A stretch of DNA of 25,288 bases from Psammoneis japonica (lineage: Eukaryota). The notes beneath the pieces were generated by a model that saw only the letters and a program-made list of their open reading frames with translations, was not told the origin of the DNA and searched no databases. A program made the translations under genes and the position numbers. Shown one piece after another: positions 1 to 25,288 of this stretch (position 1 is its first letter; each line of letters opens with the position of its first letter). The DNA lies in the NCBI GenBank assembly GCA_008632985.1, contig QPGO01000256.1, forward strand, positions 62,001 to 87,288, given 5' to 3'.

Positions 1-266
1 TTCTTGGCCCACTCTTTAGTACGAGCCTGTGCCTCGGCACGCTGTTCCTTCCTCGATTTCTTCGCCTTGATGGACTCCTCCTCGACTTGCTCTTCTTCAG
101 AGACGTCACTGTTCTGCTCAGTCATATCCTCGTCGTCATCTTCCTCCTCCGCTTCGCTCATGATAACATCCTCGTCCTCGACTCGTGTGGTGCTCTTCAT
201 CTTCTCGGCCCACTCTGCAGCACGAGCCTGTGCCTCGGCAAGCTCTTCCTTCTTCGATTTCTTCGC
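1..266 (-). repeat. Intragenic ~65-bp direct repeat, two copies 201 bp (67 codons) apart
   Basis: 1-65 ttcttggcccactctttagtacgagcctgtgcctcggca...tcgatttcttcgc versus 202-266 ttctcggcccactctgcagcacgagcctgtgcctcggca...tcgatttcttcgc. Confidence 0.85.
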
Positions 267-2569: not shown

Positions 2570-2642
2570 TGACGTGAGTGATAAGTGATGGTTCGAAGAT
2601 GCGAAGCCTAATATAATACACCACCGCTGACGTCTGACGTCA
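2570..2642 (+). promoter_or_regulatory. Cluster of TGACGT (bZIP CRE/aureochrome-type) motifs upstream of the FG-GAP gene
   Basis: TGACGT at 2570-2575 and 2628-2633, TGACGTCA at 2635-2642, about 115-190 bp upstream of the ATG at 2758. Confidence 0.35.
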
Positions 2643-2757
2643 AGAAACGAAAGGAGTTCTCATTTTTCTGAGAAACGCGACACTTGTTCACATAGATGAT
2701 GATCTTTATTTGTCACATTCTCTTGTTCTCGCTCGTTTCAATAAACCAAAAGTAAAC

Positions 2758-5235: not shown

Positions 5236-5439
5236 AAATTGTACCTCTTATGTTCTTCCTTTCCTATCGGTTGCACTGCATTTGTAATTCATTTCATGGC
5301 AGTGCAAGGACGGCAACATCGACATCAAGGGACGATGAGAGTTGCAATCAGCTTGATCTTGAACGCATTTCGCATTGCAAAATTAGTTCGCACAAATCTC
5401 TCATCAGCGCACCAACCACGAGTGGCTCCATCATAATGA

Positions 5440-8200
5440 TGGCTCCACACAGTGTGTTTTGCCAGAGTCCATTTGGCAACAGCCTAAAAAAGCAGGACAT
5501 CTTCCTGAAGAAGATGTGCATTCTTGTTCAGAAAAAAATGTCCGCATTGCTAGATTGTTTTGCTTTAAAATTTTTTGCTGGTGGCATCAAAACTCACTGC
5601 TTTTGGATCTCATTAATCTTGTCTGCTTCTGTTTCTTTGAGGTTGGCACTCAATTTTGCTTGAGCAAGATCCCTCCAAGCCCTCTTTCTGGCAACAAATG
5701 TGACACCTGCCCAAGGATGTGAGAGGAGTGAGGTGCATCTGTCCTTCCCCAATGCAGCTTCAATGGCTGATCACCACCCATGCTGCTCAGGGGTTTGTCC
5801 TGCTGTGTTGGAGGTGGGTTTTGGCAGAGTGAACTTTTGCCAGGGTGGTTGACACAGCTCGTCCCCAACTTTTGTTGCAGCCTTTTTCACCAGGAGTGGC
5901 CACAAATTCACAAGCAAAGAGGTGCTGCTGTCAGCTGCTGTGGCATCACATTGATCCAAAATTGAGAAAGCAGCGTGGTTGCTCAGGGAATTCACCAGAA
6001 GCAAGACTTGGTGCCATTTTCAGACTGGTTTCATGTGCACACTTGTGCTTTGGCACAGATGCCATTTTGCCAGTTTTTAATTTGTTGCTGTGATGCACAG
6101 CAGCCAGTGTCAAGTGACAACAGTCATTTCTTTTCATTCTTGGAGAAGCATTGGATTTCTGATTGGCAACGTTCATTGGCTTGTCTGCACTGGATGTGGC
6201 TCCATCATCTGTGAGTTTGCCAATGTCACACTGGACTTTTCCAAAGCTGCAAAGTCCACCTGGTGGTGGTGACATGTCAACTCACAAGGCTAGAGTTGGT
6301 GGTGCTGGAGCAGAGGCAATTGGATCCAGGGGATGCACCTTGTTGTGTCCCATGCCATGGACAAGCAGGCATCGGCCAAGTCAACCACAGTTTGACAAGT
6401 TCCCATGCAAAAGAAGTGTGGTGAGCTCTTGGTCCAGCCCGTGGGGAGCACCAGCAGCAAGGCCACCAGTGGCTCCTCTCCCAGTCCCAAAGGGAAAGCT
6501 GTTCTGAGCTTGGCCATGTCCTCCAGGCACAACCCAACTCTGCAGAATCTGTCCAAGAGATCCAGATCTATCATGTGAATGAATCTGCTTGGAGTGTGTT
6601 GCAGAACACTCAATCCAGTGCATGGCCAAATTGCATGGCCTCCAGTGGAGCAGGCTTGTGTGTCTTGTTGTTGAGACCACAGATGCTGCCTGCAACCAAC
6701 CCCACGGTGCAGTCTCCAGTGGATGGATGGCTGCCACAATCAACAGCCACCCAAATCTTGGAGGATGCCCTGTCTTCAGCAGTGAGTTGGACTGGGGCTC
6801 CATCACAGCAAAGACTTTCCAACAGCCTGGCAGCTGGATGGGGCAGCTCACTCACAGACCATGGTGCCAAATGAACTCCCTGTGTGGATGTTTCTCAAAA
6901 TGGAGCCAGCCTGAAGATTGTGAGAGTTTGATGCCTTCAACCACTGACTCACTCCAAGGGGGCTGCTGGTGTTGGTCAGGCAAGTTGGCAGGTGAGGGCT
7001 GCAGGTGAGTCCACTGACTTGCTGCTGGCCCAACACTTCAGGTGGAGAATGCCGCCAGTGTGGCTGCTGGCACCACCACTCCATCATCTTGAGGGTTGGG
7101 CAAATGTTCATGTGCAAAGGCACTCATGGCAGTGTGCTCACATCATGGTGCTGGGTTGTGACAGGTGCCACATTGCTCACAATTTGTCAAAGCACGTGCC
7201 TTTGAGAGGACAGTGGGAGAGGCAAATCTCACATGGGGCTCCACTGATGTTTGTTTGTTGAGGTGCAAAGCACTGCCACAGAGTGAGCAAACAAATTCCA
7301 GCCTGTTCTCACAGGGCCGGGGTTTGTGACAGCAGCTCCAATCATGCCAGTGGAGAGTCAACACTGCCTTGGGGATCCTTGGTTGATTTTGGACCCTGGC
7401 CCATCAGATGGGTCAGAAGTGAGAGCACACACTTTGTCAGGTGTTGGCAAGCAGTCTGGAATGCATGGGACTCCTCCTTGCATGAGTCAGCACAAGACTC
7501 CAGTCATGATCTGGATGACCTCTCAGCAGATCCACGGCAGAACATTGCCTTTGAGAACTCTGTGTGCTGGACTGTTTGAGAAGATCCACCACCATGTCCC
7601 GCCAGTCTTCCTGGCAGAACTCATTGCCTTGAAAACCAAAGATGTGCCCATCCTAAAGGTGAGGTTGTGACCAACTGTAAGTGGGAGAGGGTGACAGATG
7701 CAAGTGACTTGACAGCCGGCACACTGCAGCTTGGCAGTGCACACATGGCCACCGCTCTCTGGATCATGCACAAGAAGCAGGTGTTCCAGAGTGCAAGTGT
7801 GGAAGCCACAAACATCCATGGCACAATGGCTGAGGAGGTTGGTGGTGCATTCTCCACCCAAATGATTGCTTTGATCATCTGCTTGTCTTGAGAGTTTTGG
7901 GAGGTGCGAGTGTGGTGCTTCAGCAGCTGTGAGGGGGACAACAGGAGCCACGCTGAAGCATGGTGTGTGTCACTTTCTTTTTCAACATTGCAACTGCTGC
8001 TGTGGTCAATGGGTGGCAACAAGTTGCAAAACAGAATGCCATGGCATTCCGATCCGTTCAAGGTTGTGGGCGGGGCCAGCCATCCATGGCTGGCCTGGGC
8101 CAGGCACGGGCCGTACCTTGCCAGACACGTCTGTCCGTCCCATCGCAGCTCCAGTTGAGGGAAATCGAAAAGTGGTTATGTCGTACGCAGATCTATGTAG
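5440..8200. mobile_element. Decayed transposon block (boundaries approximate), almost devoid of TpA and CpG
   Basis: Abrupt compositional change between two genes. By hand, 5 TA in 5641-8100 and about 15 CG in 5641-8040. Contains an RT remnant. No termini could be defined. Confidence 0.75.
6370..6860 (-). pseudogene. Frameshifted reverse transcriptase remnant of a tyrosine-recombinase (DIRS/Ngaro-like) retrotransposon
   Basis: Minus-strand fragments LPHPAARLL..L..DGAPV, GLN...APLEAMQFGHALD, IHMIDLDLLDRFCRVGL (cf. KxDLSDGFYR) and AFP.G.GEEPLVALLLVLPTGWTKSSPHFFC (cf. LPMGWxxSPPYFC), in RT order. Recognised from memory, not searched. Confidence 0.7.
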
Positions 8201-8400
8201 GGGCCCTAGGTAGAAATGCACATGAAATTGTACTAAATATCATCTATAGCATTGAGGAGATTCAAATTATATGTAAATACAATTTTGAATATAATTATTA
8301 CAGTACAAACCCCTGTACATTTCTACACAACTCCATTTCCCGCGGTTTTTGCCTCCAGAGAAAAAATGATAACCTTACTCTCTCACAACAAAGCAACACC

Positions 8401-11400
8401 ATGGACGACGACTCGAATCTTTTACCGTCCGACAACATCATGCCTACAATGAAAAGTCGCAACAACAACGACGACGACTCGAGTAGTACTATCAGTAGTA
8501 GCAGTGACTCGTCGTCGTCCTCCGAAAGCCACGACGATTCGTCCAGCAGTGACGATGATGATTCTTCCGCGAGCAGCACCAACGACGTGGAGATGAATCC
8601 TTCCATCATCCATCAAGACTCCACCAACAATACAATTCCTGCTACGGTCGCGACGACGACGACGATACAACGACCAAGTCCGGTACAAAATCCATATCGT
8701 CCTTCCAAAGTAGAACCTCATGCTTCCACCGCTACGAGTGCTCCACGTACAGATTCTACGACGAGCAACAACGGTACTGCTTTGTCATTCCAAAAGAAGA
8801 AAAAGAACGAACCCACCGCATCCGTTTTTCCAAAAACTACCGCGTCCACTTCGCTTGTTCCGCCACATCGTCAAGAACAGAAACCACAAGTACCAGCCTC
8901 GACGGACGATTTGTTATCGTGCTTTTTTCAAGACTCCACGACGACCAACAACGACAACTGCGGTAGTAGCAGCAGTGCTTTTTTTGACAAGCACAAGCCG
9001 ACAGTAGCTGCATCTGATCTTCCGATCGCTACTTCTGCTTCGCAGCCGTCTCGTAAGCAACAAGAACAACCAGCACCATCACCCGCCGTCAATAGTACTA
9101 CTACTCCAGACGATTTCCTGTCGAGACTTGAACATGAGTCGTCATCCATTCCACAAGCTCAAGTCATCAATCCTCAAGAGATTCTTGCTCGTCGATGTTG
9201 TTCCAACAAGAATACTCCAGTATCCTCCAAAAAGCAACCCGTCGTTGTGCATTTATTGACACGCCAAACCCGTCCCAACCGTCCGTGTCTTGCAGTCAAG
9301 CAAGTGTTCGCCAATAATCATCATGATGGTGCAGCACAAGACTTGTTTCCATTCCAACAGTTCAATCCCATGCAATCGGAAATGGCATACCGTGTGGTCA
9401 ATCATAATAATTCGTCTCCAAAGAACATTGTTCTTTCGGCACCGACGGGAGCAGGCAAGACGAGTATTTTTGAAATGGCCATGGCGCGCATCATCTTGTC
9501 GTCGTCGTCGAACCAACAAGAACAACAAAAAATGGTGTACATGGCTCCAAGCAAGGCACTCTGTCAAGAGCGTTTCGAGGATTGGTCTAAGCGATTTGGA
9601 ACTCGAATCCACATTGCAGTGTTGACGGGAGACACTCTTGATGAGCAAGAATCGGCCTTTGCGACATTGGCATCGGCACAATTGATTTTGACCACACCGG
9701 AAAAATGGGATTCACTATCTCGGACATGGACGCATCATCACTTTGACCTGTTTGCCGCTGTCAAATTGTTCATGTTGGATGAAGTCCACTTGTTGGGTGA
9801 TGCGAGCCGTGGAGCGTGTTTGGAATCCATCATTTGTCGAACCAAAATGATTCAAGAAATCGTTCAAGCCTGCAAGGATGTGAACGGGTGAGTACAACGC
9901 AAGTTGAGCATTTGTACCGTAGTATCGCTTTTGTATCATTTCAAAACAACTCACCGACTCGTATCTATTTTTTCTCCGTCTAATGTCATACTACAGTTTC
10001 TCCCACGACACTCTTCCACAGCCATCAATACTCCAATCGGATTTACGAATCATTGCCGTTTCGGCCACACTTCCCAATTTGGCTGATATCGCTTCCTTTC
10101 TTCAAGCCAACGAGTGTTTTTGTTTTGACGATTCCTATCGTCCCGTTCCACTCACCACGCACGTGGTGGGATTGGGAAACATAATCAAGGGCAACACCTT
10201 TCTCTTTAATAGGAGTCTCAACAAACACGTGTCGCAAATCCTACAGCGCTTTTCGAGAAACAAGCCAAGCATTTGCTTTTGTCATACCAAAAAGGAAACG
10301 GAGCAACTCGCCGTGGAGTTGGCAGCGTCAAATAAGAATCCAAAGGAACCGAGGGCTCTACACACCCTCGCAGCCAAGACCAAGGTAGTGCAGTTGCAAA
10401 AGTGCTTGATGGGGGGATTTGCCTATCATCATGCCGGACTGGATGCCGACGATCGCAAGCTTGTCGAAAACGCCTTTGTGGCGGGTCAAATCTCATGTTT
10501 GTGTGCCACATCGACACTGGCCATGGGTGTCAATTTACCAGCGCACCTTGTCATCATCAAGGGCACGAGCGCGTGGCGTGGACAAGGAGGTCATCAAGAC
10601 GTGGATCGAGCGCAATTGTTGCAAATGATGGGACGAGCCGGACGACCCGGTTTTGATACCAGTGGGACGGCCGTCATTATGACGGATCACGCCTCCAAAA
10701 GACGTTATGAACAAGTCTCAAGTGGACTGTTGTCCACCGTTGAAAGTCAATTGCCCAATTCCTTGGTGGAGGTCTTGAATGCGGAAATTTCACAGCGAGT
10801 CATTGGATCCGTCGACCAAGCCATGTCGTGGATCAAGAAAACTTTTTTCTATCGTCGAGTGAGAACCAATCCGTCTCATTATGGTATGCTTATCAGGACG
10901 CCGGCGGATTTGGATGCTCAACTGCGGGATCTCGTTGTGCAGTCGATTGAAACGTTGAGCAGGCAAGGAATTGTATCAATTACTAGCAACGAAACGGTGG
11001 TTCCAATGCACGCCTCTCACGTCATGAGTCAGCACATGGTGGACTTTGATGCCATGAAGAGGATTGAGTGTCTACCGCACGATGCGGGACAACTCGACTT
11101 GCTTCAAACCCTGACGGAAATAGAAGGACTCCACCGACCGGTCCGTCGCGACGAGAAACGGAAGCTAAACAATATCCACAAAATGATTCGGTATCAGCTT
11201 CCCGGCCCACCCAGCAAGATTCGCATTCAAACTCCGCAACAAAAGGCCTTTGTCTTGTTACAAGCCGCCATTGGACAGCACAAATTCGACGACTACACGC
11301 TCCGTCAAGAAGTATCGTCTGTGGTGGAGTATGCGACGCGCATGTTGACGGCGGCCCAAGAGTACAGCGTGGACGCAAGCAAGCACGGTCAAGTGGCGCT

Positions 11401-13472
11401 GCAGAGCTTGCGGTTGCGACGGTCGCTGGCGACCAGCCTTTGGGGTGCTGGCAAGGAGGGGTTGGTTCTCAATCAGCTCTTGGGCATTGGGCTCAACACG
11501 GCAAAGAAGCTGAAATTCAACAAGATTCTGTCCTTTCAGGATGTCTTGCATACTTCGGCCGAGGATATTGAAAAGGCGGCGGCTCGATCTGGTGGATTCG
11601 GAAAGGACCTGAGGGTGGTGGTATCCAAGATTCTCAAGAGTACTCTTACCTTGACGGCCAAGGTGGAGAACGATAAAGATTCGAATCATTCTAAAGAGAT
11701 TGTTTGTACGTTTGCCAAAAACACCAGCTACGACGCCTTGATGGAGAGTTCCGCGTCGACTGGTAAGGACGCCACTGCCAATACCCGTCTCGTTACGTAC
11801 ACTCTTGCAGTTTACACGGATCGGCCAGGCGGATGTCTCCTGTTTCAGTCCAACATTGCTGGTCCCGGCGAGTACCGAATTCCGTGCCCGCCCGAATTCG
11901 GAAAAGTGTTTGTTCACGCCGTGTCTAATCTTGTTGGGCTTGACGAGTATCTTGAACTCCAGGGAAACGCCGAGGTGGTGAAATCCAAGTTCACCGCAAA
12001 CCCACTAAAATCAAAGGAATCGAAAAAACCGCGCAATACTTCCAATGCGTCCATCGACACGAAGAAAATGGCTCCCTCTCATTCTCAGTTTCGAGACTGC
12101 GTCAAGAACGTTGGAGACTTTCGTATCAAGAGCAAGCCCCCAGTGAAAAGCAAGAGATCATTGTTTCAGGGAAGCAAAAAGACTCCTGCAAAGGGAACCC
12201 ACGCAAATGGCAATAGTAATTTGACAGTCACCCCGTCACCGCCGCCACTGAGTATGGCGGCGGGTAGCGCCAACACTACCGTCGAGCGTGCTCCGCAGCC
12301 AATGGCTACAAGTACCAGAACATTCAATAACAACAGCAACTGGAGCCCACCTCGAAATCGCACACCACCGAGAAGCGCTGCTAGGTCAACATCGTCGGAA
12401 GCCAAGCCGTGGAAGAGGGCGAAAACCGAACAAAAGAATCTTCAGAAGCGAGCATTTCGGACCAAGAGCGAGAATCCTTTTGCGGAGTATTCGTTCGACC
12501 CGTGAGTAGAATTTCTCGCTTTTTGATCTGCACGAACTTTTGTTGAACTCGTTGTGCTCACTCTCTTTCGCTTCATCTAATACATTCAGGAATGACATTG
12601 AAGGCACCCTATTTCAGGCTGCCACAAAAAGCCAAGGGGAGCATATTCAACAAGAGGCACCCTCCGTGATCCCTCCCGGCACGTTTGAATCATTGCGGGC
12701 CGCTCACCAAACTCCGCAGTACCGACACTCGAGCGCCCCCTATGGGGCATCGGGAAGGGTGTTTAATCGCGCATTCAACACCGGACACCGCAAGAGAAAG
12801 GGAACAGGCCCGCGAATTCCAGAGACGGAGCTACTTCATATGAAAGCCGCGGAGCAAGAGAGACATGCACGAGAGCAACTTCAAAATAGCAGCCGGCGCC
12901 ATGACTCTCAGCAGTCAGGCATCTTTTTAAAGATGAGGAACGCCAGGCCAACTGTCTTTCCTCAAAACCATCCGTTCAATGACAATGTCTGCGGTGGTTC
13001 TAACATGATGGAAGAGTCGCTTGCTTCACCACCTCGATGCAATGACAGCTTGGGAGGGTCTATGGTTGCTGATGAGTGGGGTCCGCCGGAGCCAAGCTAT
13101 CGGAACGCACAAGGAAACTTTCAAGACGAAAGAGGTGCAATGCCCTGGTATGGATATTCTCTTGGTGCAGAGCCACCCAAGTACGGAGGAAACATAGCTA
13201 ACGAGCCCGTATACACTGGCGATTCCTCGACATGGGATACTTTCGAGACCCAAGGGGATACATTCGTCGGCCAAGAAAACCGACCAATCGGTTCGCAAGA
13301 TGAATGGCACCAGTCTCAACCAGTGGTGTACAGAGTACCAGTAGAAACTTCCAGGACCCCAAGAGGCGTAGTAGAGCCCACCCCAAGGTCCAGCTTTATT
13401 GAGCAGCAACCGAATTCACAACGTTCAAAGAGAAATTTGGAGGAAGAGAAGCTGCTCGAAGCTTTTTTCTAG
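8401..13472 (+). CDS. MER3: Meiotic DExH-box Ski2-like DNA helicase MER3/HFM1 with Sec63 domain; exons 8401-9887, 9997-12501, 12590-13472 (1624 aa)
   Basis: Motifs FNPMQSE, SAPTGAGKT, MAPSKALCQER, TTPEKWDSLSR, LDEVHLLGDASRGACLE, IIAVSATLPN, YHHAGL, TSTLAMGVNLPAHLVIIKGT, QMMGRAGRPGFDTSG, then a Sec63 region. Introns 9888-9996 and 12502-12589 (both GTGAGT...CTCAC...CAG, phase 2) join three ORFs in frame, 4875 nt total. The start codon is the likeliest choice, not proven. Confidence 0.9.
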
Positions 13473-13558
13473 GGAGAAAAGACAGCTCAGGCCGCGTGTT
13501 GGCTTCGGTCTCTAAGTTTCTTTCTCTGTAACTATATAACAACAGCATTCTCCAAAAA

Positions 13559-16500
13559 CTATCGCCACAACTTGATTGCCCCATCATATGAGCAACTGAG
13601 TAAGGTTCTTATGGGATACGAGATCATTTTCAAATCTGTAATAGAGTCATGATGTTTCGTTTCAGGTTTGGAAAGACCCCGCTGAAGCTTTCGCGGAATT
13701 TTTGAACTCTCAATTTCGCCGACACCCAAAGGCTCATTTTCCCTGCAAGTAATGAGTCGGCCGTAGTCAAAGTCGACACGAGCAAAGGTAGGCCTCTGTT
13801 GCCCCCCACTAATCGTATAACATTTCGTCGGAGACAAGAAATCAAAGTAACGAATATGGCAGTCGCTGCCTCCTGTTATGAGGTAGTCCCTCTTTTCGTG
13901 GCCACCAACGCTACCAACCATTCCCGTCATGCGACCTTTCGAGGCCGTGGATGCAAAATCAAAGCTATCAGGTAGACGGATATGCTTTCTCATCGATCGA
14001 CTGTGGTAATTCGTTGTGATTGGCACCTCGCGAAGAGACGGCAATGTTGTTGCTGGTGGATCCATGTATCCAGTACCAGGCTCAATGACGCGGAAGCATT
14101 GGCAACAGCTACTGCTTGCAATATCAAACATGGAGCACTCGTTGGGGCCGCATGCTGCAAACATGTACGGGCGTGCGTCGTTACTCGAGACGTTGTGCCC
14201 ATGAGGTAGTGCTGAATAGGATGTCGCAAGACGGTTCACAGGAGAAGCGCTGCTATGCTGCCACAGCTTTACCATTTGCTGAAACCGTATATCCCACAAG
14301 GCAAGGAACCCACGACTTGTACCAGTCACCATCCAATGACGATCGTTACCAAGTGACATGCTCGTCAGATACCCAATGTCAGGCCGGTGTTTCAAGATAA
14401 AGGGCTCTCTTGCACTTCTCAAGTCCCATGAATGAACCAAACCTTTTTGAGTGGCAAAGGATAGGATGGACGCAGAAGGGGTATTGAAATGAGAAACAGC
14501 AAGTACTTCTCCTTCCACTGGATCGATTTTGCGAATAAGACTACTTCCTGAAACCCTTGACATTTCGTACGTGTCACTGGTTCCTGCAGCAAACTTTTCC
14601 GCGATTTTCTTACTCGTTGTCACTGCGTCAACACGCCACACGTGCACAGACCCGTCACTGGCACCAGAAACTACAGAATGACTATTCTCGACAATTGCAA
14701 CATCATTGATTCGGGGATAGGCATGGCCTGCATCCTCAGTGTGACCAGAATAAGTCAGACTGCTCTCGAGAATCCCGACAGAGTCTTCTGCTTGTCGAAG
14801 CTCCCAAACACGACATGTACCATCGTGACTTGCTGATACAAAAAAGCCTTGATCTTTTGTAACCGCCAGTCGAGATACAGGAGCAGAATGGCCACTTTTC
14901 AAAGAGCTACTGGCTAAAAGGGCATCAGATTTTGGTCTCCATTCTCTAGATGACGTATCCTTGGGAGAAGCGGACGATGGGCGCTGAGATGTCACGGCTT
15001 GTCGACTACGTTCGCGTAGCACACCAAGGTTTGGAGGGAGTGGCGGCACGCTAAGGCCTTTCAACTTCGATGTGAGTAACATGGTATCGACATCGGACGG
15101 GTCCAATCGCGCTTCTGCGCCCCATTCACCAGTCGACGCAGAATCGATAACTTTCGATTCCGATGATGTCAGGATTTGCTTGGCATCGGCTTCTGTCAGA
15201 CGCTTGTCATCCGGAAACACGTCACCCTCTGAAGTCATGGCAGCGTCTAGCAATGCTTTGTCCTCTTCCGCTGGAGTTGACAGAGGCATGAGGGAGAGAC
15301 CATAGACCTTGCTCAGTGTAGCAACAGAGCGAATTCCGCATGTCTCGGAGCAATACGACCCATTGCTCTGAGAAAAGTCTCTCAAATCACTATACCACAT
15401 TGGCAAGTGAGCCGATCTCTGACCAGTGTATCTTTGGCTTGGAAACTTGACCTGTTGAGCGAGTTTCGGGTTACCTTCGATTGCATTTGCAAGATTACTC
15501 CGGAGAAATTCCTTCCGAGAAAGCGGGTCAAATACAAGTTTTCGGCTTCTCGACAACATGCGCAGATAGCTCGTGACTTGGCTAGAGTTTGATCCCACAA
15601 GAGGCTGAGAGGGAGAATCAATGCCTGCGGTATGCATATGGCTTGGTCCGTTGCCTCCATCGTTACCATCCTGTACGTCAATACCAATTGATGTCCACTT
15701 GCCCGAAGTCGGCGAGAAGGATTGCAGCTTGTCCAAGTTGTCCAGCTCCTCCCTAAGCCTTTCTTTTGTCCAAGGAGGATATAGGCAAGCTCTTAGTCCT
15801 TCTGAAGTGGTCAAATGGCGTTCCGTCGGTTCAAACCTTAGATATGGTCGAAGAAGAGGCACCAAGAACACATCTCGATCTGGAAATCCCATGGCCACAG
15901 AAGCTGCATTGACCAACTTGATGGCCCCGTTGCGAACATAAGCTGACGGGTACAACAAGAGTGGTGAGTACCTTTCAAACAAACCAATGTTCTTCCCGTT
16001 GCTTCTCGAACGACCCGTGGCATCAGCTTCTGAAGAGTACGCCGGCGTCCCGACAAGAGCGGAACGTGAAAGCAATCCCAATTCAACCAACGCAGCCAAG
16101 CATAGCAGTGCCTGACTCATGACTAGGTCTTCACCGTCCACGAGTGCAGTCTCCAAACAGGGCAATACAAAGTGCTCTGTGGCAGCCCTACCGACAATGA
16201 AACAGAGCGAGGGTAAATGTTCAAAGAGCGACGCCCGCAATTGCCAATCTCGTCGATCATTAAGAAAGGCAAGAATCTGAGGCAAAATAAATGCAATGAC
16301 TCCGTCACGACCAAAGAAGTTACACAACCGCGGCAAATCATGGAGCAAGCCCAACTTGGGTGGAGACGATTGCTCCGACTGATCGGTAGCAATATGCATG
16401 ACCCACCGCGACACCATTTCATGCAGACCGGCAAGTTCGACATTGTACGTGTTGCTAATGAGCGTCTTGTCACCGGCCGATGATGTAATCTTTTGGTTTT

Positions 16501-18757
16501 CCAAAGGAGTCGACGACCCTGACGATGCCTTTGCATTGTCCAAGCCTATCGAACCGCTGTCGTGCGGACTCTTTTTGCTACTGCTATTGTCATCTCCCAA
16601 GAGATTTGCAACATCATCGGCAAAAACGTTATCCTTTGTTTCGTCCTTTGCTTCCTTGGTTTCATGGGCATGACTTGCACCACCACCACCCACGGCTTCG
16701 TAAAGTCGTACAGCATGTGATATATCCAAGAATCTCAAAGACGTTTCCGCCAAGAGCGGAATGCATTCGGAAAATGCAATTCTCACGACAAGCGATTGAT
16801 CCGTCAAGAGATGAGCCACACGTTTAAATATGTATTGCGGAAACACTTTTGAATCCGACGGCGCAAAGCTCTCGATCCGTGCCAAGGTACTCGTGAGTAC
16901 ACGAATGGCACCGGCTCTCACAAGGGCGTCTTGATCGTGCAACAAATCAATCGTGGTGGGTACAATGCGTTGCAGACGAGCATCGTCGGTACAAGCATGG
17001 CGGCCAAGCCGCTGCAAGAGTTGCAATCCAACAAATTTGCTAGACGGCCGTTGGACGTGACGAATCGTGACGAGAATCAATTGCAAAAAGAGCAAAAGGG
17101 AACTCTTGCAAGATGGAGACCGGGACTCGTTCTTGTCAGTCACGTCGGTAGGAGGCTTTGATTCATCATGATGCTCTGGCTTCAACCGGCCTGCCGCTTC
17201 AGGTTCCGGTGCGACGACATTATCAATGGTTAGAGAATCTAGCTTGTCAAGCAATTCTTGGGTTTCCTTCATCAACTTGTCCAGGTCATTCTCTTGTGGA
17301 TGGTTATCTTTGTCCCCGCCTACATCTTGTTGTTGTTGTAGATCCGTCTCCTTGATATCTTCGTCGTCGTCCTCATTCTTGTCCAGCTTGATAATGGTTT
17401 CACCCAAGATTTGATCAAAATAGGCTTGTCCAGTCTCATCATGAATACCAAGACAGGCAAACAATACTCTATCATAATAGGAGGCCGCCATGGCAATACG
17501 AGCATCGGGTGTAATGACTGTTTGGTTCTTGGGAGCACAAATCACCTTTTGAAACAGCTCGGTAAACAAATCAAATGTCTCCGGCATGACGGGGGACCAA
17601 GAAGTGGATGGCTGTGACGTTGTTATGTTTTTTGCGTCCGAGGTTGAAGTACTCCTGTCAGCGTCTCTTCCACTACTACTCCCTTGTGGTTGTTGTTGTT
17701 CGAGTCGTTGCAAATACTCCTTTGCCGACAGTCGCTCTTTGGGATTTAAATGCAACATGTGTCGACAGGCAGCACGGGTCGAAGACGATTCAATCTTGTG
17801 TAGATTGGATAAAAGTGCCGCCGTCAGGGTGCCCTGTCGACGATATTCCATCAAATCCCCCAAATCCATGGCACGTTCACCGTTCAAAAAGAGTTCCATC
17901 ATGCAACAACCGACACTAAAAATGTCACTGGCCGGTGTCAATCGTGTCAAGCGTGTGTTGTTTGTTTCTGTGTTTTGAGCCGTAATAGTAGATGTTCTCG
18001 AGGGAGTATAGAAACGTTCCGGTGCCAAATAACAACGCTTTTCAGCACGCGGTGACGTTGTTTTTGTTGTGGAAGAATGTTGTTGTAATTGTTCTTGAAA
18101 ATAATACAAATACATGGACGGATCATCATCGGGTAAGGCCGTCACGTTGTGTTTATAGGATGAAACATCCAACAAAATTACATGATTCCAACTCGTCAAA
18201 CCGATATTTTCCGTTGTGAGGAAACCGTGCACCACGTTTTTATCATGCAAGTGTTGTACCGCACGCAACAATTGTCGCAAGACCCATTGTTTTTCCACAA
18301 CGTGCAAAAAGGGCCGACACGCCAATCGATCCGACAGTGTCGTGTACACGTGACTTCGCATGACATAAATCGGAATCATGGTGGCATTCGGATTGGCAGC
18401 AGCCGTAGACATAGGAGTCCCCACTTTCCAATACAAAAAAGGTGCCACATTTACCGAAGCATTATCTCGTAGTACTTGTTTGATGCGACGCAATTCAGCC
18501 TCTTGTTGTTCCAACGATTCCTCCAATTGCTTTGCAGGTACATACATGGACTTGACGACTACCAAATTACCAAGGGATGAATTCTTGAGCAAAAAGGTTT
18601 TGGACATGCGGCCCGAACCGGGAACCAAACGTTGCTCCACACTGTAGTTGGGAAAATTCCCAGCCAAGTCCAACTCCTCGTCTTGTATTGAGATTGTTGT
18701 TGTTGCACTTGTTGTTGTACTTGGAGGAGTGGATGACGAGGAGTGATGAGCGCCCAT
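13559..18757 (-). CDS. VPS15: Phosphoinositide 3-kinase regulatory subunit 4 / Vps15 (kinase-like domain, HEAT repeats, WD40), 1732 aa, apparently intronless
   Basis: MG start (MGAHHS) matching the myristoylated Vps15 N-terminus. Motifs TLSDRLACRPFL..VEKQW, LPDDDPS, RCYLAPERF, DIFSVGC, RLQRIVP, FPQYIF, AFLNDRRDWQLR, and WD40 motifs FVSASHDGTCRVWE and SCSYDGAIKLWR. Confidence 0.95.
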   Translation of the reverse strand: MGAHHSSSSTPPSTTTSATTTISIQDEELDLAGNFPNYSVEQRLVPGSGRMSKTFLLKNSSLGNLVVVKSMYVPAKQLEESLEQQEAELRRIKQVLRDNASVNVAPFLYWKVGTPMSTAAANPNATMIPIYVMRSHVYTTLSDRLACRPFLHVVEKQWVLRQLLRAVQHLHDKNVVHGFLTTENIGLTSWNHVILLDVSSYKHNVTALPDDDPSMYLYYFQEQLQQHSSTTKTTSPRAEKRCYLAPERFYTPSRTSTITAQNTETNNTRLTRLTPASDIFSVGCCMMELFLNGERAMDLGDLMEYRRQGTLTAALLSNLHKIESSSTRAACRHMLHLNPKERLSAKEYLQRLEQQQPQGSSSGRDADRSTSTSDAKNITTSQPSTSWSPVMPETFDLFTELFQKVICAPKNQTVITPDARIAMAASYYDRVLFACLGIHDETGQAYFDQILGETIIKLDKNEDDDEDIKETDLQQQQDVGGDKDNHPQENDLDKLMKETQELLDKLDSLTIDNVVAPEPEAAGRLKPEHHDESKPPTDVTDKNESRSPSCKSSLLLFLQLILVTIRHVQRPSSKFVGLQLLQRLGRHACTDDARLQRIVPTTIDLLHDQDALVRAGAIRVLTSTLARIESFAPSDSKVFPQYIFKRVAHLLTDQSLVVRIAFSECIPLLAETSLRFLDISHAVRLYEAVGGGGASHAHETKEAKDETKDNVFADDVANLLGDDNSSSKKSPHDSGSIGLDNAKASSGSSTPLENQKITSSAGDKTLISNTYNVELAGLHEMVSRWVMHIATDQSEQSSPPKLGLLHDLPRLCNFFGRDGVIAFILPQILAFLNDRRDWQLRASLFEHLPSLCFIVGRAATEHFVLPCLETALVDGEDLVMSQALLCLAALVELGLLSRSALVGTPAYSSEADATGRSRSNGKNIGLFERYSPLLLYPSAYVRNGAIKLVNAASVAMGFPDRDVFLVPLLRPYLRFEPTERHLTTSEGLRACLYPPWTKERLREELDNLDKLQSFSPTSGKWTSIGIDVQDGNDGGNGPSHMHTAGIDSPSQPLVGSNSSQVTSYLRMLSRSRKLVFDPLSRKEFLRSNLANAIEGNPKLAQQVKFPSQRYTGQRSAHLPMWYSDLRDFSQSNGSYCSETCGIRSVATLSKVYGLSLMPLSTPAEEDKALLDAAMTSEGDVFPDDKRLTEADAKQILTSSESKVIDSASTGEWGAEARLDPSDVDTMLLTSKLKGLSVPPLPPNLGVLRERSRQAVTSQRPSSASPKDTSSREWRPKSDALLASSSLKSGHSAPVSRLAVTKDQGFFVSASHDGTCRVWELRQAEDSVGILESSLTYSGHTEDAGHAYPRINDVAIVENSHSVVSGASDGSVHVWRVDAVTTSKKIAEKFAAGTSDTYEMSRVSGSSLIRKIDPVEGEVLAVSHFNTPSASILSFATQKGLVHSWDLRSAREPFILKHRPDIGYLTSMSLGNDRHWMVTGTSRGFLALWDIRFQQMVKLWQHSSASPVNRLATSYSALPHGHNVSSNDARPYMFAACGPNECSMFDIASSSCCQCFRVIEPGTGYMDPPATTLPSLREVPITTNYHSRSMRKHIRLPDSFDFASTASKGRMTGMVGSVGGHEKRDYLITGGSDCHIRYFDFLSPTKCYTISGGQQRPTFARVDFDYGRLITCRENEPLGVGEIESSKIPRKLQRGLSKPETKHHDSITDLKMISYPIRTLLSCSYDGAIKLWR

Positions 18758-18952
18758 GACTGAACAAAGAAAAGAGTTATAGAGTAGCAATATAAAGTGG
18801 CTGTGTTGTAAGGATGATAAAAAATCAGAGCATTCAGAGTGATAAAGTAACTTGGCTGTCCGATTCAATCTTGTGATGTGTTTGTCAGTATGATTGGGTG
18901 ATTGGTGCCCACAGATATTGAGCCCCAAAAGACCGTTTTGCACCGAAGATAA

Positions 18953-19899
18953 CCCTTTGACACATGGCCACTGTTATTTGGGGCCTGGCCCCAAATAATG
19001 CGCCATTCTGATTGGTCTAAATAAATAAATCCACAAGTAAATTTTGGCGGGAAAATAACGGCTAAATCGCTTGGGGCCTGGCCCCAAATGCACAAGGTTC
19101 GAGTGACGAATGTGCTCGAGGCATTGAAAGATTTTCATGGCTGTTTACGTCGATTGTTGCACTGGTGTGTTGAGCGATCACACGCGAAAACCCAGACGAG
19201 AAAACGAGATTTTTTGCCTCCGCAACAGCATCCATAGATGGCGACTCGACCGCCATTTCGGTGGCCGGAGAAAATGGCGGGAAAGCTGCAACCGTCATGC
19301 AGGAATCTCAGATTTCAGAATTGTTTGTTGGTGGAAACAAAAAATGAAAAGGAGTGGTTGAAAGTGCCGCATGGCAACAAACATCAAACCACCACAAGTT
19401 TGATTCTTGTTCTTGCTTGTTGACACAAAGTCAAATCTTACGGTGCCAAAATGATCAACAATCAAAATGAAAGTTGCGATGTAGATAAACCAAGCATGGT
19501 TGTTTTGATCGTGTTGTTTTCATTCATCTCAGACAACAATGAGGTGCTCGCCGTGTCGCGAACCTGACATTGTCGACTTCCCCCTGATTTGCCATGTTGT
19601 TTGCTCATCTGTGATTGACACACCGTTGATTTGGATGGAAAACAACCATGTGGCTAAAGTGACAACCAAACAGACACACATGAACACACAGAGTTCATGC
19701 TGTGAAGACCTGTCAGAACAGAGAGCAAATGGGGTCTCGCGTCCTGAAACCGCCATCATCGAGTCGTCGTGGTTCCCGTTTGCAAGAGCAGGCATCGTGC
19801 TCAAATCATGGTCGTCAAGATTCTGTCAGACAAAATGTCTGACCGTTAAATTCTCATTTGGGGCCTGGCCCCAAACAAGCAATTTCATGTGTCAAAGGG
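18953..19899. mobile_element. Non-autonomous piggyBac-like DNA transposon (947 bp), 195 bp upstream of the VPS15 start
   Basis: Perfect 14-bp TIR CCCTTTGACACATG (18953-18966) / CATGTGTCAAAGGG (19886-19899). At both ends a 7-bp spacer is followed by the palindrome TTTGGGGCC(T/A)GGCCCCAAA, with a third copy at ~19071-19088. Flanks are ATAA (18949-18952) and ACAA (19900-19903), consistent with a mutated 4-bp TSD. CCC...GGG ends suggest piggyBac. No transposase recognised. Confidence 0.8.
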
Positions 19900-19903
19900 A
19901 CAA

Positions 19904-20562
19904 CAGACGGAAAATCTGAAAAATGCACGCACACACGAAAAGTGGGGGATGAGCACGCAGGCAACTCTTTACAAACTGTGCAGGAAATGTGCCAGGGTTT
20001 GTGTAGAATTTGACAATGACACAATTCCATTTTGATGGCGACAAGTGGAAACACACATGGTTTTCCAGTGCAAATTTGACAGCGACGCCACAGACGGAAT
20101 CATTGTCAACACACCAAAAACTGCATCAGGTTTTCGATCACAGGGAATTCCTTGTTTGGCGCTTGACTTCCCCAGACAAGGAAAGACAAGGAACCAAGAA
20201 AAGGAAAAATTAATTGGTCATTCAATGTGCAGTTGCAACCATCATGATCCTTTCATCCAGCTAGAAGTTGATTTGTCCAGAGCCTCTGGCTGCCAAAACA
20301 CCTCTTTTTGTGCAATGCACTCAATGGGTGAGGCAGACACCACTGGGGGGCACTTTCTCAAGGACAAAAAGATGTGCTTCCACGGGGTTTCTTCAAGTGC
20401 AATCTGCTTGAAGCAAGCCCACAAAAGCTCAAGTTGGTGTGGCAAATCTGGCGCACATTGTGCAACAAAACAAAAGAGGAAAGCCTCTTTGTTTCCTTCA
20501 TTCAACAAGCCAATGAGGGGGGAATCAAGATGTCCCGTGAGCATGAGAGCGGGGTTTTGGGT
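19904..20562. other. TpA-depleted decayed sequence of unidentified origin, probably another repeat fragment
   Basis: Same compositional signature as the flanking transposons; no protein motif recognised. Confidence 0.4.
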
Positions 20563-20841
20563 TGACAGAAATTGAAGGGCAAATGGCAAGAATTCAAACA
20601 ACAACTCCTCACTGCTGTCTAAATGGCAGATGAGTCTCCACTCAGAGACCGTCACAGGAGCCAAAAGACGTGCAAGTCGGCACAATCGGGCTGCTGTTGT
20701 CATTCTTGTGAGCTGTGTGGCTCAAAAGCAAACTGCATCGCATGCACACGTGTGGAGCTGAAGAGCACAAAAAACTGTGTGCGGTGAACTAAATGGCATG
20801 CGACATTTTGCGCACACCCAAATCTTGTTCAAATCCTGTCA
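20563..20841 (-). repeat. 3' LTR (279 bp) of the copia remnant, preceded by a polypurine tract
   Basis: Minus strand reads ACTGGGGAG (PPT, 20842-20850), then TGACAGGATTTGAA...TTCAATTTCTGTCA, with TG...CA ends and short terminal inverted repeats. Lies just downstream of the RNase H remnant. Confidence 0.9.
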
Positions 20842-21241
20842 CTCCCCAGTTTGCTTGAGGAGTCACAGAAACAGATTCGAAGTCGGATTGGTTGAAAGCC
20901 TTGGGATCGAAGTTCCAAAACATTAGAGGATGAAGGAGGTTCCAGATTTGGGAGCAACCCCAATGCTTGCTGAGGATGTCAGCCGGGTTGCGGGAGCCTT
21001 CGATGGAATGAAACCTGAGGAAACCGGAGGCAATCGCCTCACGCACATGATGGAATGAGAGGGTGGTGTGTCACTTGTGCAACTTGGAGTGCGGGATGGC
21101 AGCACTGTCCACAACCGACTCTTGTTGTTTTCAGGAAGATCATCATTTGCAGGCCACGGAGAGACACTGCTCCGGAACAGACAATGTCGACGGGCCCGTC
21201 TGTGAGGTGTCCATCAGCAACAAGCCTTGCTTTGTGCCGTC

Positions 21242-21638
21242 GACGCGTTCCAGATGCAGGTGGGAATCCGTGTGACATTGGGCCCGTAGACTTCTGCATG
21301 CGGAGCTCCGCAGTAAAATCACACGGCAATTAAAATGTCAATGATCGCCAACAGAAAATGAGGCAATTTTGCGAATGCACAAACTCACACATGATTGAAG
21401 TGCATCATTTTTTACTTGGCCAGTTGCATTCTTCAGACATTGAAGAATGTAACTGGCGCACTGTTGTTTCTATAAATTTGTCATATAAAACGTCTGGGGC
21501 TTCGCAAAACAGCGAGTCTGGACAATTTTTTTTAAATGTCACACGTAGAAATCTACGTGCAAAACACACGACGGATGACAAAAATTGTTGTTGTCACACG
21601 TCAGCACTGCGAGCTCCCACCTGGGGCTGGAACGCGTC
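21242..21638. mobile_element. 397-bp MITE nested in the copia RT, 4-bp TSD
   Basis: TIRs GACGCGTTCCAGatgCAGGTGGGA / TCCCACCTGgggCTGGAACGCGTC. TSD CGTC at 21238-21241 and 21639-21642. Excision restores DVKHDG-R-HKARLVADG. Confidence 0.9.
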
Positions 21639-21943
21639 CGTCCATCATGTTTGACATCACAGATGAGATGCACCCGGATCTTCTTGTGTCCTGATGGAGC
21701 ACTGGAATCATTGTGGTGTCTGCAGTTGTGGAAGACCTTGCACTCATCAAGCTGTCAGACAACGCCACAGAGCCCGCATCATCAAAGCCATTGTGTCTCC
21801 CCACTTGCGGTTGCCATTGCACTCATCAAGGGCCATGGCATGCTTGCAGTCCCGTGGCACTTCATGCCCGTGCTTGCATCATGGCACAGTGCAAAAGGAG
21901 CGCAACTTGGCTTGGTTGGCCATGCGGAACAGCTTCTTCTGAT

Positions 21944-22222
21944 TGACAGGATTTGAATGGGATTTGGGTGCACGCGAAATGTCGCACGCTGTTTAGTTTG
22001 CCGCACACAGTTTTGTGTGCTCTTTAGTTCCGCGCGTGCGCGCACGATGTAGTTTGCTTTTGAGCCACAAGGCTCACAAGAACAATGACAGCAGCCCAAT
22101 TGTGCCGACTTGCATGTCTTTTGGCTCCTGCAACAGTCTCTGAGCAGAGACTCATCTGCCATTTAGACAGCAGCAAGGAGTCATTGTTTGAATTCTTGCC
22201 ATTTGCCATTCAATTTCTGTCG
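21944..22222 (+). mobile_element. Solo LTR (279 bp) of the same copia family, inserted in opposite orientation into the pol region
   Basis: Colinear, gap-free match to the reverse complement of 20563-20841. TSD CTGAT at 21939-21943 and 22223-22227. Removal restores GWRRFCKMTLH-QKKLFRMANQAKLRS. The terminal CA reads CG. Confidence 0.93.
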
Positions 22223-23680
22223 CTGATGAAGGGTCATCTTGCAAAAGCGTCTCCATCCTTTGGTTTCTAGAAGGCCGTGCTCACGCACGCAGACAGCACA
22301 GGTGATGGGGTTGTCCTTGGCAATGACGGCAAGGGGTTCGGACGTGATCTCCCCATTCTCCCATTCAAGCATGACGTTGCAGCTTGAGCCTTTCCAAGAG
22401 GGATCATGGGGTTGCAATGGTCCCTCGTGCAACACGATGCATCGGAACTTCCAGAGGGCAGTGTCCTCGTCTTCTTGCTCAATGTGGTGCATGATGTCAT
22501 TGCAGGCCAGGACTTCCTCACATTCGTCATTGTTGATGGAGCAAATGAACTTGACCAGTTCAGGATTGTCTCCGATTTTCCAGTCATGGTCCTCAACGGC
22601 TTTGACGATGCGGGCTCTGTGGCGTTGTCCATCCTCTTGTGGCTTCATGAGGAAGGTGCGTTCTGTGATGTCCTTGGGGTCAAAGACCGGCATTTTGGGC
22701 ATCCTGATTGCCTCCCCATCTGGTGAATCTGGCAAATCCTGGGAGTCGTGGCGGGATTTAATGACAGGTTCAGCAGATTTCTTGTCAGGAGGATCAAGAT
22801 GCAGGTTTGGAGCAGAGATGGATCACGGGCGGGGCGCACGTTGGAACGGCAGGGAATCTTCTGAGTGTCGTCAGAAAGAATCTTGACCATCATTTGGTGG
22901 CCAATGTGCTTGGCAATGCCAACGTCAGTGTCATTGGGCTTCGCGTTGGAGCGGGCAGAAGGTGCAAATCCGGGAGGTTTCTCACCTGAACGGGCAGAAG
23001 GAGGCCGTTCAGGTGCCAGGAAACGTTGCAAGTCACCGGGTGGCAGGGGCTTGCGCCTGGTGAGATGAGCCAGAATGGGGTTGGCATCGGCTGCATCGCC
23101 ACCTACGAGCACAAATGAAAGTAGAATCAAGCATGAAAAGTGAAAATTGTGAGATTGAATTTTGCTCTGTGATTTTTGGTTTCTCCGAATGAGCTCTCAA
23201 TGGCCTAAAGCTTCTGCACTGCTTCTACAGACAAAAGGCCTTTCGGAGAATATATTCGTGACAACAGATTGTCCGGATGCGATTGCTGTTGACACGTAAG
23301 ATGTCAACATCGTCAATCGATCGTATTTGCAATTTTCGACATCCGATCAACTCTGTGTGGCATCGTTCTGTCCTTTGTACGCATCCACGACTGTGGTACG
23401 ATTGACATATATAATATATAATTCCAAATATGTATATAACAGTCGCATGCTGCATTCGCCTCCCTAATTGCGCATTAGAGTTATTCGTTAAGTGGAATAA
23501 TTTGACTGACATTGACACTGTCAATAATGTCTCCACGTTAACTGTATTGTGCCATTAGCAATGACTGTTGTTGTTTTATATTATAGGCCAGCATAGGGCC
23601 GGCCGTTTCACTTTCCAAATGTCTTTCGAGAGTGTCATGGTTTGTCTCACGCTCTATGTGTATATGTAACGGTGCATGTG

Positions 23681-23694
23681 TATATATATATATA
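23681..23694. repeat. (TA)7 microsatellite within a TA-rich island
   Basis: tatatatatatata. Confidence 0.7.
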
Positions 23695-24341
23695 AATATA
23701 CTGTAGTATTGCGTCGAGTGGACAGAAGGAGCAATTGTCCTGCTGTTCTTTCATGGTATCGATTGTACATAGCATTCTGCCCAGCACTCGATGTACAGTG
23801 CGCTCCTAATTGGCGTTCACTTACTTTACTTACTTGTGGATTTCGCCATATTGCTCTATTGCACTACCACGTTTCATAAGTAGTAATTAACGATGGTCAA
23901 GGATATGACCATTTCGTCTTGACATTCAATCCTGTGATGGTTGTGAATTCCATCATGGATTTTTTGTACTTTAACCATCTGTCAGTTGGATTTTAATCGT
24001 CATTTGGACGTTTCTTTTTGACATGCCGGTGTCATTTTGTCTTTCCGAAGGCACTGCTTTCGTGCACTAAGTGGATAATGTCCATTTTTCTTTTCTTTTT
24101 CTGAATCTTTGGCACCCCTGTGGCAGGGGAGCTGTGTGTGTGTGCGTGGTTGTGCGCGCACGGCTTCGCCGTGCGTTGAGTTTTAATGTCAACATCCGCA
24201 CGAATGTGTGTGTTCCACAAGTAAAAATTCCCATTCCACAGCTCCCCTGAAACTCCAACCACCAAAAACCGAGGGGTCGGAAGCGCACTTTCGGGAGCTC
24301 TTTTTCTCCGCACAAAAAACACGCGTTTCATCGACTCGACC

Positions 24342-25168
24342 ATGATGATGCCTCGTAGTTCTTCCCCATCGCCTTCCCAGGACGCCGATCCTGCTGACAC
24401 CGTTGCTGACAACACTGACACAACAGGTGATGTCATCATTCCGGTTCTCGTGGGTGTGACACGCACAAAATAAGATGCTACAAACTCACACTGTTGTTTG
24501 CACGCTCCACCGCCTCCCACAGATGCTGTCACGAATTCCAACACCGCACCTGCGTTTCGGGCCCCTGGCATGCCCGATGCTGTCACTCCTGCCCTTGCTG
24601 CCGCAGGTGCTGTTGATGCTGTCATTGCATTTTGCCAATGACGTCCACAATGAAATGCTGACAACTCACACTTCTTTCATTCTCGCCCCACCGCCTCCCA
24701 CAGATGCCATCACGAATTCCAACGCCGCACCTGCGTTTCGGCCCCCCAGCATGCCCGACACTGTCGCTCCTGCCCTTGCTGCCGCAGGTGCTGTTGATGC
24801 TGTCATTGTCTTTTGCCAATGACGTCCACAACGAAATGCTTGTAACTCACACTTCTTTCATTCACGCCCCACCGCCTCCCACAGATGCCATCACGAATTC
24901 CAACGCCGCACCTGCGTTTCGGCCCCCCAGCATGCCCGACACTGTCAACCCCACCCTTGCTGCCGCAGGTGCTGTTGACACTGTCATTGTTTTTGCTTTG
25001 GAAGGAGCACAATGGATGACGGATGACGGCGGACCAGGAAACCCACGCAACCACGGCCTGCTGATGGACGACACATCAATGGACATGAATGGTGCCTCTT
25101 GGTCAGCTCTCGAGTGCAGTCCAATCTTCAGAATGTGCAGGCACATTGTGCAGCTCTCTGTAAATTAG
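24342..25168 (+). pseudogene. Candidate spliced gene or pseudogene built from duplicated 84-nt exons; exons 24342-24426, 24523-24606, 24704-24787, 24885-(24968 or 25168)
   Basis: Three 96-97 nt GT...CTCAC...pyrimidine-rich...CAG segments, all phase 1. Splicing gives MMMPRSSSPSPSQDADPADTVADNTDTT then three copies of DA(V/I)TNSN(T/A)APAFR(A/P)P(G/S)MPD(A/T)VxP(A/T)LAAA. Lies in TpA-depleted DNA, so probably repeat-borne or dead. Confidence 0.5.
24470..24996 (+). repeat. Tandem repeat, 181-bp period, about 2.9 copies
   Basis: CCGCCTCCCACAG ends at 24522, 24703 and 24884. GCCGCAG|GT junctions at 24606, 24787 and 24968. Confidence 0.92.
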
Positions 25169-25288
25169 AAACCTGACAACAAGCAGGCATGCTTTCACAG
25201 TTTTTTAGTTTCAAGTTGGAGAGGTCAGCGAATTGGCATTTGTTTGCAGGCGACTTGGCAAGGTTTCAAATGGTGCATGTGACTTGGC

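Follow-up and report, generated by a model that had tools for sequence, protein, structure and literature searches.

The window analysed here is a 25.3-kb stretch of gene-dense eukaryotic DNA, whose frames are long and almost without introns (25,288 nucleotides of contig QPGO01000256.1, Psammoneis japonica; all positions below are those of the window). Its minus strand carries the remains of a Ty1/copia-type retrotransposon polyprotein in which conserved tyrosines are replaced by cysteine or, more rarely, by histidine. These replacements are probably the coding footprint of a locus-targeted hypermutation acting at the DNA level, A:T>G:C at TpA, which would prefer 5'-TAY-3' (Y, pyrimidine; R, purine) on either strand and would have come near saturation in silenced mobile-DNA relics. 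The depletion of TpA spans about 7.4 kb of mobile-DNA relics and is special neither to tyrosine nor to copia. The phenomenon is real and uncommon, and is of the same kind as a process described only in 2026, in a different lineage.

Conserved tyrosines of the copia-type relic

We mapped the relic by tblastn with 150 relatives obtained from an exhaustive profile search (lengths of the mapped relatives, 1171-1913 residues). Six collinear pieces were found on the minus strand, from 22923 to 20906:

22813..22923, minus strand: piece 0, about residues 1058-1096 of the 1881-residue relative P0005, in a frame unlike that of the next piece (tblastn and column profile)
22222..22831 (tblastn match to 22217), minus strand: piece 1, with motifs NDEC..LAC, GSSC and TCAVC and 0 Tyr (phmmer and profile)
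21768..21941, minus strand: piece 2, with P*CKHGHEVPRDC (tblastn and column profile)
21638..21754, minus strand: piece 3, with QLDEC and SGHKKIRVHLICDVKHDG (tblastn and column profile)
21132..21239, minus strand: piece 4, with RHKARLVADG and IVCSG, followed by an internal deletion (tblastn and column profile)
20906..21121, minus strand: piece 5, the C-terminal end of the polyprotein, with HWGC and a CGA>TGA stop at 21073 (tblastn and column profile)

Searched with phmmer against 1.84 billion representatives, piece 1 gave 2129 hits at E<=0.001 (best 1.7e-69). The family PF07727 (RVT_2) is present in 18 of 24 long relatives, and homology to polyproteins carrying it places the relic in the Ty1/copia type. 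A sequence from the diatom Attheya sp. is found among the named relatives (58% identity), the one point in favour of a possible place in the CoDi clades of diatom copia elements. No Pfam family matched any of the copia pieces, and the catalytic core of the reverse transcriptase (RT) was not recognised. About 380 internal residues (1423 to 1803 of P0005) have been deleted, and with them the RT core and RNase H. Since the RT stretch is deleted and without Pfam match, the element is a relic and not a working member. It is also split by two insertions bearing terminal inverted repeats (TIRs; 21941-22221 and 21239-21638), nothing of the 5' part (gag, protease, integrase) is left beyond about 23130, and no direct repeat that would represent long terminal repeats was found flanking it.

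Then, we determined residue frequencies per column from up to 182 aligned stretches of relatives, with Tyr-consensus columns defined by at least 50% Tyr. A preliminary description of this DNA had named eight tyrosine-bearing motifs of the family, and all eight are borne out by the relatives. Named by what the relic now shows, the columns have Tyr frequencies of 0.69 (GSSC), 0.33 (NDEC), 0.91 (LAC), 0.92 (AVC), 0.80 (P*C), 0.43 and 0.45 (KHGH), 0.65 (RDC), 0.85 (DEC), 0.71 (SGH), 0.95 (IVC) and 0.79 (WGC), while the LIC column is shared by Phe and Tyr (0.50/0.50). At the 10 Tyr-consensus columns, the relic retains no tyrosine and shows 8 Cys, 1 His and 1 Trp. Of the 14 nearest relatives listed, 12 are aligned at the Trp column and 5 of these have Trp as well, so that this residue is probably native. 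Over its 483 codons the relic has 0 Tyr, the median of the relatives being 3.6%.

The same description had proposed to compare the fate of tyrosine with that of other residues, an equal loss counting against its claim. The claim withstands this comparison: 226 of 290 non-Tyr consensus columns are retained versus 0 of 10 Tyr columns (Fisher p=5.1e-7), and the other residues singled out are mostly kept: Phe in 9 of 11 columns, Asn in 9 of 10, Asp in 22 of 24 and Lys in 17 of 25 (His, 13 of 14). Where the relic shows Cys or His, its closest relatives (48-60% identity) have Tyr, so the direction of the change is TA>TG/CA, as had been suggested. Among the 74 consensus columns that differ, 11 are explained by one TA>TG/CA step and 19 by one CpG>TpG/CpA step; the rest are other transitions (12), transversions (15) and multi-step changes (17). 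The CpG-type replacements consist of R>H, R>C, R>Q, R>stop, A>V and T>M, with D>N and V>I after C, so that the CpG decay described as superimposed on the loss of TA is indeed present.

TA-poverty could have been a trait of the family. As a control set we used 80 metagenomic loci encoding relatives (45-60% identity). Their TA observed/expected ratio (o/e) ranges from 0.31 to 0.96 (median 0.66), RTAY is plentiful, and only 7 of 1583 windows of 800 bp fall below 0.25 (minimum 0.19). No hypermutated copy was found among these 80 loci. As they are normal in TA, TA-poverty is not a trait of the copia family. In addition, six of the 182 aligned stretches (P0008, P0064, P0078, P0092, P0129 and P0149; 37-46% identity where listed) show Cys or His at Tyr columns; one of them, P0092, is without a single Tyr over 335 residues. 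To judge from their sequences, these six are probably further hypermutated copies in public data.

TpA-depleted zones and the target motif

Three zones of the window are depleted in TA, and the copia relic belongs to the second of them:

5434-8114: zone A, a 2.7-kb intergenic stretch; TA o/e 0.02-0.08, CG o/e 0.06-0.13
about 19200-23251: zone B; TA o/e 0.08-0.21, CG o/e 0.43-0.76
19200..20563: left part of zone B, TA-depleted repeat DNA not assigned to a kind; six frames without Pfam match
23252..23966: TA-rich island, o/e 0.83; a genomic repeat without hypermutation, which serves as internal control
23967-25288: zone C, repeat DNA continuing past the end of the window; TA o/e about 0.15, CG o/e about 0.9 (0.88)

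TG+CA is elevated in every zone (1.5-1.9). Outside them the TA o/e is 0.4-0.8, with 0.4-0.7 in the genes, where CG is near 1. The limits of the zones are sharp, within about 100-200 bp. The runs free of RTAY measure 2872, 2568+1767 and 1321 bp in the zones, and elsewhere in the window only one such gap reaches 400 bp (404 bp).

The loss depends on the base that follows TA. In each zone, TAC/GTA and TAT/ATA stand at 0.02-0.17 of their control frequency; the reduction of TAA/TTA and TAG/CTA stops at 0.2-0.55, and no trinucleotide lacking TA and CG falls below 0.58 in any zone. We then counted the surviving TA sites by context in the zones (7441 bp) and in the rest of the window (17651 bp), with 372 kb of relatives' DNA as a second control:

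RTAY (TAY on both strands): zones 0; rest of window 222; expected from relatives' DNA 117.5
mixed (TAY on one strand): zones 18; rest of window 338; expected from relatives' DNA 177.1
YTAR (TAY on neither strand): zones 23; rest of window 77; expected from relatives' DNA 56.9

Survival differs between contexts when the zones are compared with the rest of the window (p=3e-13 and 5e-7). In a per-strand model, the survival of an A is about 0.15 in TAY versus 0.63-0.84 in TAR, i.e. a 4- to 11-fold preference according to the control. The target is 5'-TAY-3', on either strand. On the coding strand of the relic, 1 sense-only YTAY survives where 26.8 are expected and 1 antisense-only RTAR where 11.9 are expected, in agreement with the earlier claim that TA is lost on both strands. 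The corresponding products YTGY and RCAR show an increase (1.66 and 1.32, respectively), YTGR and YCAR none.

This motif accounts for the behaviour of tyrosine. As the Tyr codon is itself TAY, its adenine is always a target, which makes tyrosine a perfect reporter and makes Cys the dominant outcome. His is rarer because it takes a hit on the other strand, where the TAY context exists only for codons that follow a purine. In line with this, Tyr codons after a pyrimidine have become 8 Cys and 2 His, both of these His columns being often His in relatives, and those after a purine have become 3 Cys and 3 His.

The loss of TA is separable from the loss of CpG. CpG decay is strong in zone A and near absent in zone C; the two are uncoupled because in zone C the TA o/e is about 0.15 yet the CG o/e is 0.88.

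Besides the copia relic, the zones hold the following features, together with a repeat inserted in the relic:

6290..6739, minus strand: RT-like open frame in zone A (..IDLDLLDRFCR.., ..SSPHFF..)
20564..20844: MITE-like element 1a (MITE, miniature inverted-repeat transposable element), inverted relative to 1b and 86% alike; 2 TA
21941..22221: MITE-like insertion 1b, TIRs matching at 14 of 16 bases, 5-bp target duplication ATCAG; 4 TA, depleted
21239..21638: MITE-like insertion 2, 400 bp, inverted termini of 12+8 bases, 4-bp duplication; 12 TA including TAC and TAT, a normal content

The preliminary description had also read a DIRS-like RT with the same kind of replacements. Its FCR and PHF strings were located in zone A on the minus strand (6547 and 6421), amid residues that look like RT motifs, and the RT itself was not confirmed by Pfam. 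Clusters that a language model finds alike to the frame 6290..6739 carry RVT_1 (score 0.93), which serves as a lead only; it is plausible that the frame is an RT relic. Pfam searches on the open frames and on six-frame read-throughs (stops as X) of zone A, the left part of zone B and zone C returned nothing usable. In zone A, TAA and TAG are gone; since only TGA stops remain, spurious open frames of 80-180 codons occur in all six frames, and gene callers would be misled there. Zone C contains three tandem units of 181 nt (24466-25045; 89% and 84% alike), which differ chiefly by CA/TG and CG/CA/TG alternatives.

The two copies of the first MITE-like element differ at 40 positions, 36 of them transitions, and 11 of the differences are doubles of CA versus TG. 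We considered these doubles, together with those of the tandem units, as independent TA hits and withdrew this interpretation, most of the contexts suiting an ancestral CpG as well or better. In the public run, other copies of the copia element lack insertion 1b (contig joints), and insertion 2 is missing from several of them (joints 21236>21638 and others). Insertion 2, set cleanly within the copia relic and highly repeated in the run, is either younger than the hypermutation or exempt from it. The TA-rich island gave no Pfam match in six frames.

We also estimated the number of copies from the depth of public-run contigs aligned to the window. The depth over zone A is 58-74 versus 57-112 over the flanking genes, and zone A is single copy at 80% likeness. 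Past about 18640 the depth is in the thousands, and past about 19974 in the tens of thousands; the copia relic with its inserts stands at 30,000-94,000, and the depth is 7,000-12,000 over 23309-25288, including the unmutated island, whose depth is about 100 times that of single-copy genes or more. Present copy number is therefore no predictor of mutation, since the single-copy zone A is mutated and the high-depth island is spared. Moreover, depletion is not confined to high-copy DNA or to retroelements, because the TIR-bearing MITE-like element is depleted too. Hundreds of related contigs cover zone B and show an excess of transitions (574 versus 125 places; run X1, 728 variant places). Across zone A, public-run contigs agree with the window, 1269 bases showing 0 differences and another 5898 bases showing 3, although this run may be the source data.

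Known systems, possible mechanism and alternatives

The closest described process is that of Bigelowiella natans, in which Mettrop et al. (bioRxiv 10.64898/2026.01.13.699255, 2026) reported TpA hypermutation of integrated viral DNA from mutation-accumulation lines. Two integrated viral regions, one of them single copy, received 231 of the 302 new point mutations in these lines, and 230 of the 231 were A>G or T>C, all at TpA. The TpA-poor coding sequences of B. natans are described there as enriched for RT and DDE endonuclease domains, and the authors propose a DNA adenine deaminase, with an ADAT2 homologue as candidate (bioRxiv 10.64898/2026.01.13.699255). The likeness to our window lies in TpA>TpG/CpA restricted to certain regions, normal neighbouring DNA and a single-copy region also hit. 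Here too, the changes are confined to TpA (Tyr columns, trinucleotides, TG+CA), they affect both strands with TpG and CpA products, Cys and His outcomes both occurring, and they are restricted to particular regions, of which the parts assigned to a kind are mobile or foreign, namely the copia relic, the MITE-like element and the RT-like frame. The differences concern the host, a chlorarachniophyte (Rhizaria) versus a diatom-like organism, and the targets, which in B. natans are giant-virus and virophage inserts still rich in TA (3.3% and 9.2% TpA) and here are transposon relics near saturation. In addition, the process was seen happening in B. natans whereas only its end state is seen here, and the available B. 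natans text mentions no CpG overlay, which is present here in zones A and B. From the literature covered (subscription journals outside coverage), no TpA-destroying hypermutation is reported in diatoms, and the B. natans preprint is the sole report for any organism.

Repeat-induced point mutation (RIP) of ascomycetes is similar in that context-specific transitions riddle mobile elements with missense changes and stops, with sharp limits beside intact genes. However, RIP turns CpA into TpA by C>T and enriches TA, whereas TpA is destroyed here, the opposite polarity; RIP also needs duplicated DNA, while the depletion here reaches a single-copy zone and passes over two repeats. We therefore rejected fungal RIP. 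APOBEC3 of vertebrates resembles the present case by a deaminase-type hypermutation fixed in integrated retroelements (PMC4866542). It acts as C>U on minus-strand complementary DNA, giving G>A on one strand, whereas A:T>G:C is found here on both strands and outside retroelements too. The methyl-CpG decay of transposons matches the CG>TG/CA changes of zones A and B and cannot explain the loss of TA.

The proposed process would leave genes and some neighbouring repeats untouched while relics reach saturation. By analogy with B. natans, and given the DNA-type and single-copy targets, it would act on integrated DNA, presumably through an enzyme. The likeliest agent might be an adenine deaminase of the TadA/ADAT2 kind acting on DNA, which is a conjecture. 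The tRNA substrate of bacterial TadA is U33-A34-C35, a T-A-pyrimidine shape; because TAY resembles it, a TadA/ADAT2-derived deaminase is our first guess. The role would be genome defence, mobile elements being killed by missense and nonsense changes. The CpG>TpG/CpA changes would belong to a second, separate process, presumably 5-methylcytosine deamination in methylated transposons. Candidates for what sets the choice of targets, and spares insertion 2 and the island, are how old an insertion is and guidance by chromatin or small RNA.

Other explanations may be weighed against this one. The same targeted, DNA-level process could rely on another chemistry, in which the T of R-T-A is modified (e.g. 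by a TET/JBP-type dioxygenase, to 5-hydroxymethyl- or 5-formyluracil), mispairs with G and yields T>C, the adenine not being deaminated. T>C at R-T-A is A>G at T-A-Y read on the other strand, and the sequence cannot separate the two chemistries; modified T is moreover present at TpA in repeats of kinetoplastids and dinoflagellates. However, the modified T of kinetoplastid telomeres sits in Y-T-A-R, and Y-T-A-R is the best-surviving context here, which argues against thymine modification; we regard it as unlikely. An untargeted origin would combine a genome-wide neutral bias against TA with CpG methylation decay, visible only in old unconstrained DNA, the unmutated repeats being young. It is true that TA is under-represented in genes too (o/e 0.4-0.6), and that the two unmutated repeats may be recent, other copia copies lacking insertion 2. 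Nevertheless, adjoining non-coding DNA is rich in TA (20 TA in 8201-8400, and the island at 23252-23966 with its o/e of 0.83), the zones end within about 100-200 bp, and in zone C the loss of TA is near saturation while CpG decay has barely begun. TA>TG would thus have to run far faster than methyl-CpG decay, and a neutral bias appears distinctly improbable.

An ADAR-like A-to-I hyperediting of retrotransposon RNA before reverse transcription, fixed at integration, would also produce A>G. ADARs favour a 5' U, as the same preprint states (bioRxiv 10.64898/2026.01.13.699255), and the best-studied target here is a retrotransposon. Yet editing of this type changes A to G on the sense strand only and favours a 3' G, whereas the antisense-only loss in the relic is as full as the sense-only loss and coding-strand T>C changes exist (Tyr>His, Val>Ala). 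The strand symmetry of loss and products therefore speaks against sense-RNA editing ahead of reverse transcription. Depletion also extends to tandem repeats and to a DNA-type element with TIRs, and the 3' neighbour differs: TAG, the triplet favoured by ADARs, outlasts TAC and TAT. ADARs are known only from animals. We rejected such RNA hyperediting, to which we leave a very small chance. Finally, the pattern could be an artefact of sequencing or assembly, for instance base-calling errors at modified bases in repeats, some long-read base callers being known to err systematically at methylated motifs. The public-run contigs nevertheless reproduce zone A over 7.2 kb, at a depth of 57-74, with the few differences given above (with the same proviso that the run may be the source data), the relic shows real decay in its shifted frames, its deletion of 380 residues and its insertions flanked by target duplications, and the Tyr>Cys/His pattern recurs in six other public predicted proteins. 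The chance of an artefact is next to negligible.

Several points weigh against targeted TAY hypermutation as the explanation, or against parts of it. The split of Cys and His by preceding purine or pyrimidine, with n=16 codons, is not significant alone. The expected counts use control DNA that is mostly coding or comes from elements of other organisms. The CA/TG doubles of the first MITE-like element are mostly in contexts that fit an ancestral CpG better than TAY, and are no proof alone. Insertion 2 and the island at 23252-23966 are undepleted repeats, so that being repeated is not enough to become a target, and part of the pattern could be due to age. The substrates of eukaryotic ADAT2/3 mostly have a purine at position 35 and fit TAY less well than that of bacterial TadA. 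The available B. natans text states no preference for a pyrimidine at +1, nor do the words 'trinucleotide', 'context' or 'diatom' occur in it, and a shared mechanism would be an analogy. More generally, the interpretation is drawn from one window and from protein relatives of at most 60% identity, with the end state only and no de novo event seen.

With these points in mind, DNA-level hypermutation at TAY remains our preferred interpretation. We further suggest, tentatively and with some doubt, that this lineage or diatoms hold a counterpart of RIP with reverse polarity, a chromatin- or RNA-guided DNA adenine deaminase descended from the tRNA enzyme TadA/ADAT2. Such an enzyme would go on recognising T-A-pyrimidine, as in the anticodon loop, and would clear silenced transposons and integrated foreign DNA of their TpA. 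If this were true, DNA adenine editing would, with B. natans, be a genome defence common to the SAR supergroup (stramenopiles, alveolates and Rhizaria) or one that evolved twice, and the enzyme would be a natural DNA adenine base editor.

Targeted hypermutation against mobile DNA is established for C>T (RIP, APOBEC), and its A>G chromosomal counterpart has just been proposed, from one alga. The window extends the TpA signature to saturated transposon relics in an ecologically dominant, diatom-like group. It adds a sharper motif (TAY), independence from CpG decay and from copy number, and a reporter at the protein level, conserved Tyr becoming Cys, or His where the codon follows a purine. Any diatom genome can be scanned for TA-free islands. 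As hypermutated relics escape domain models (no Pfam hit), repeat and gene annotation will under-call them.

Genes and minor features of the window

Four genes were recognised in the window:

857-2173: prolyl-hydroxylase/ShK protein
2638-5235: FG-GAP protein
7957-12505, plus strand: DEAD/Helicase_C/Sec63 helicase, named relatives HFM1/MER3
13559-18973, minus strand: Vps15-like kinase with WD40 repeats

HFM1/MER3 is a meiotic crossover helicase. Among named relatives, the helicase is closest to the HFM1/MER3 proteins of two diatoms, Cylindrotheca fusiformis (48% identity) and Fistulifera solaris (45%), and the host was treated as diatom-like for this reason; by these similarities the host genes look diatom-like, with no finer placement.

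A contig of run X3 skips 85 nt in the helicase gene (9869-9953), and this skip would join two open frames. It is probably a spliced intron, and the contigs of run X3 are probably derived from transcripts. They cover the genes and not the TA-poor zones, and were not used as evidence on expression. At 12437-16816, two depth levels (56.8 and 111.6) are observed, together with a 4373-nt contig showing 79 differences and 15 gaps versus the window, which suggests two diverged haplotypes or strains in the sample. At the start of the window (1-276), a direct repeat of 75 nt (87% alike, 201 nt apart) lies within an open frame that crosses the window start.

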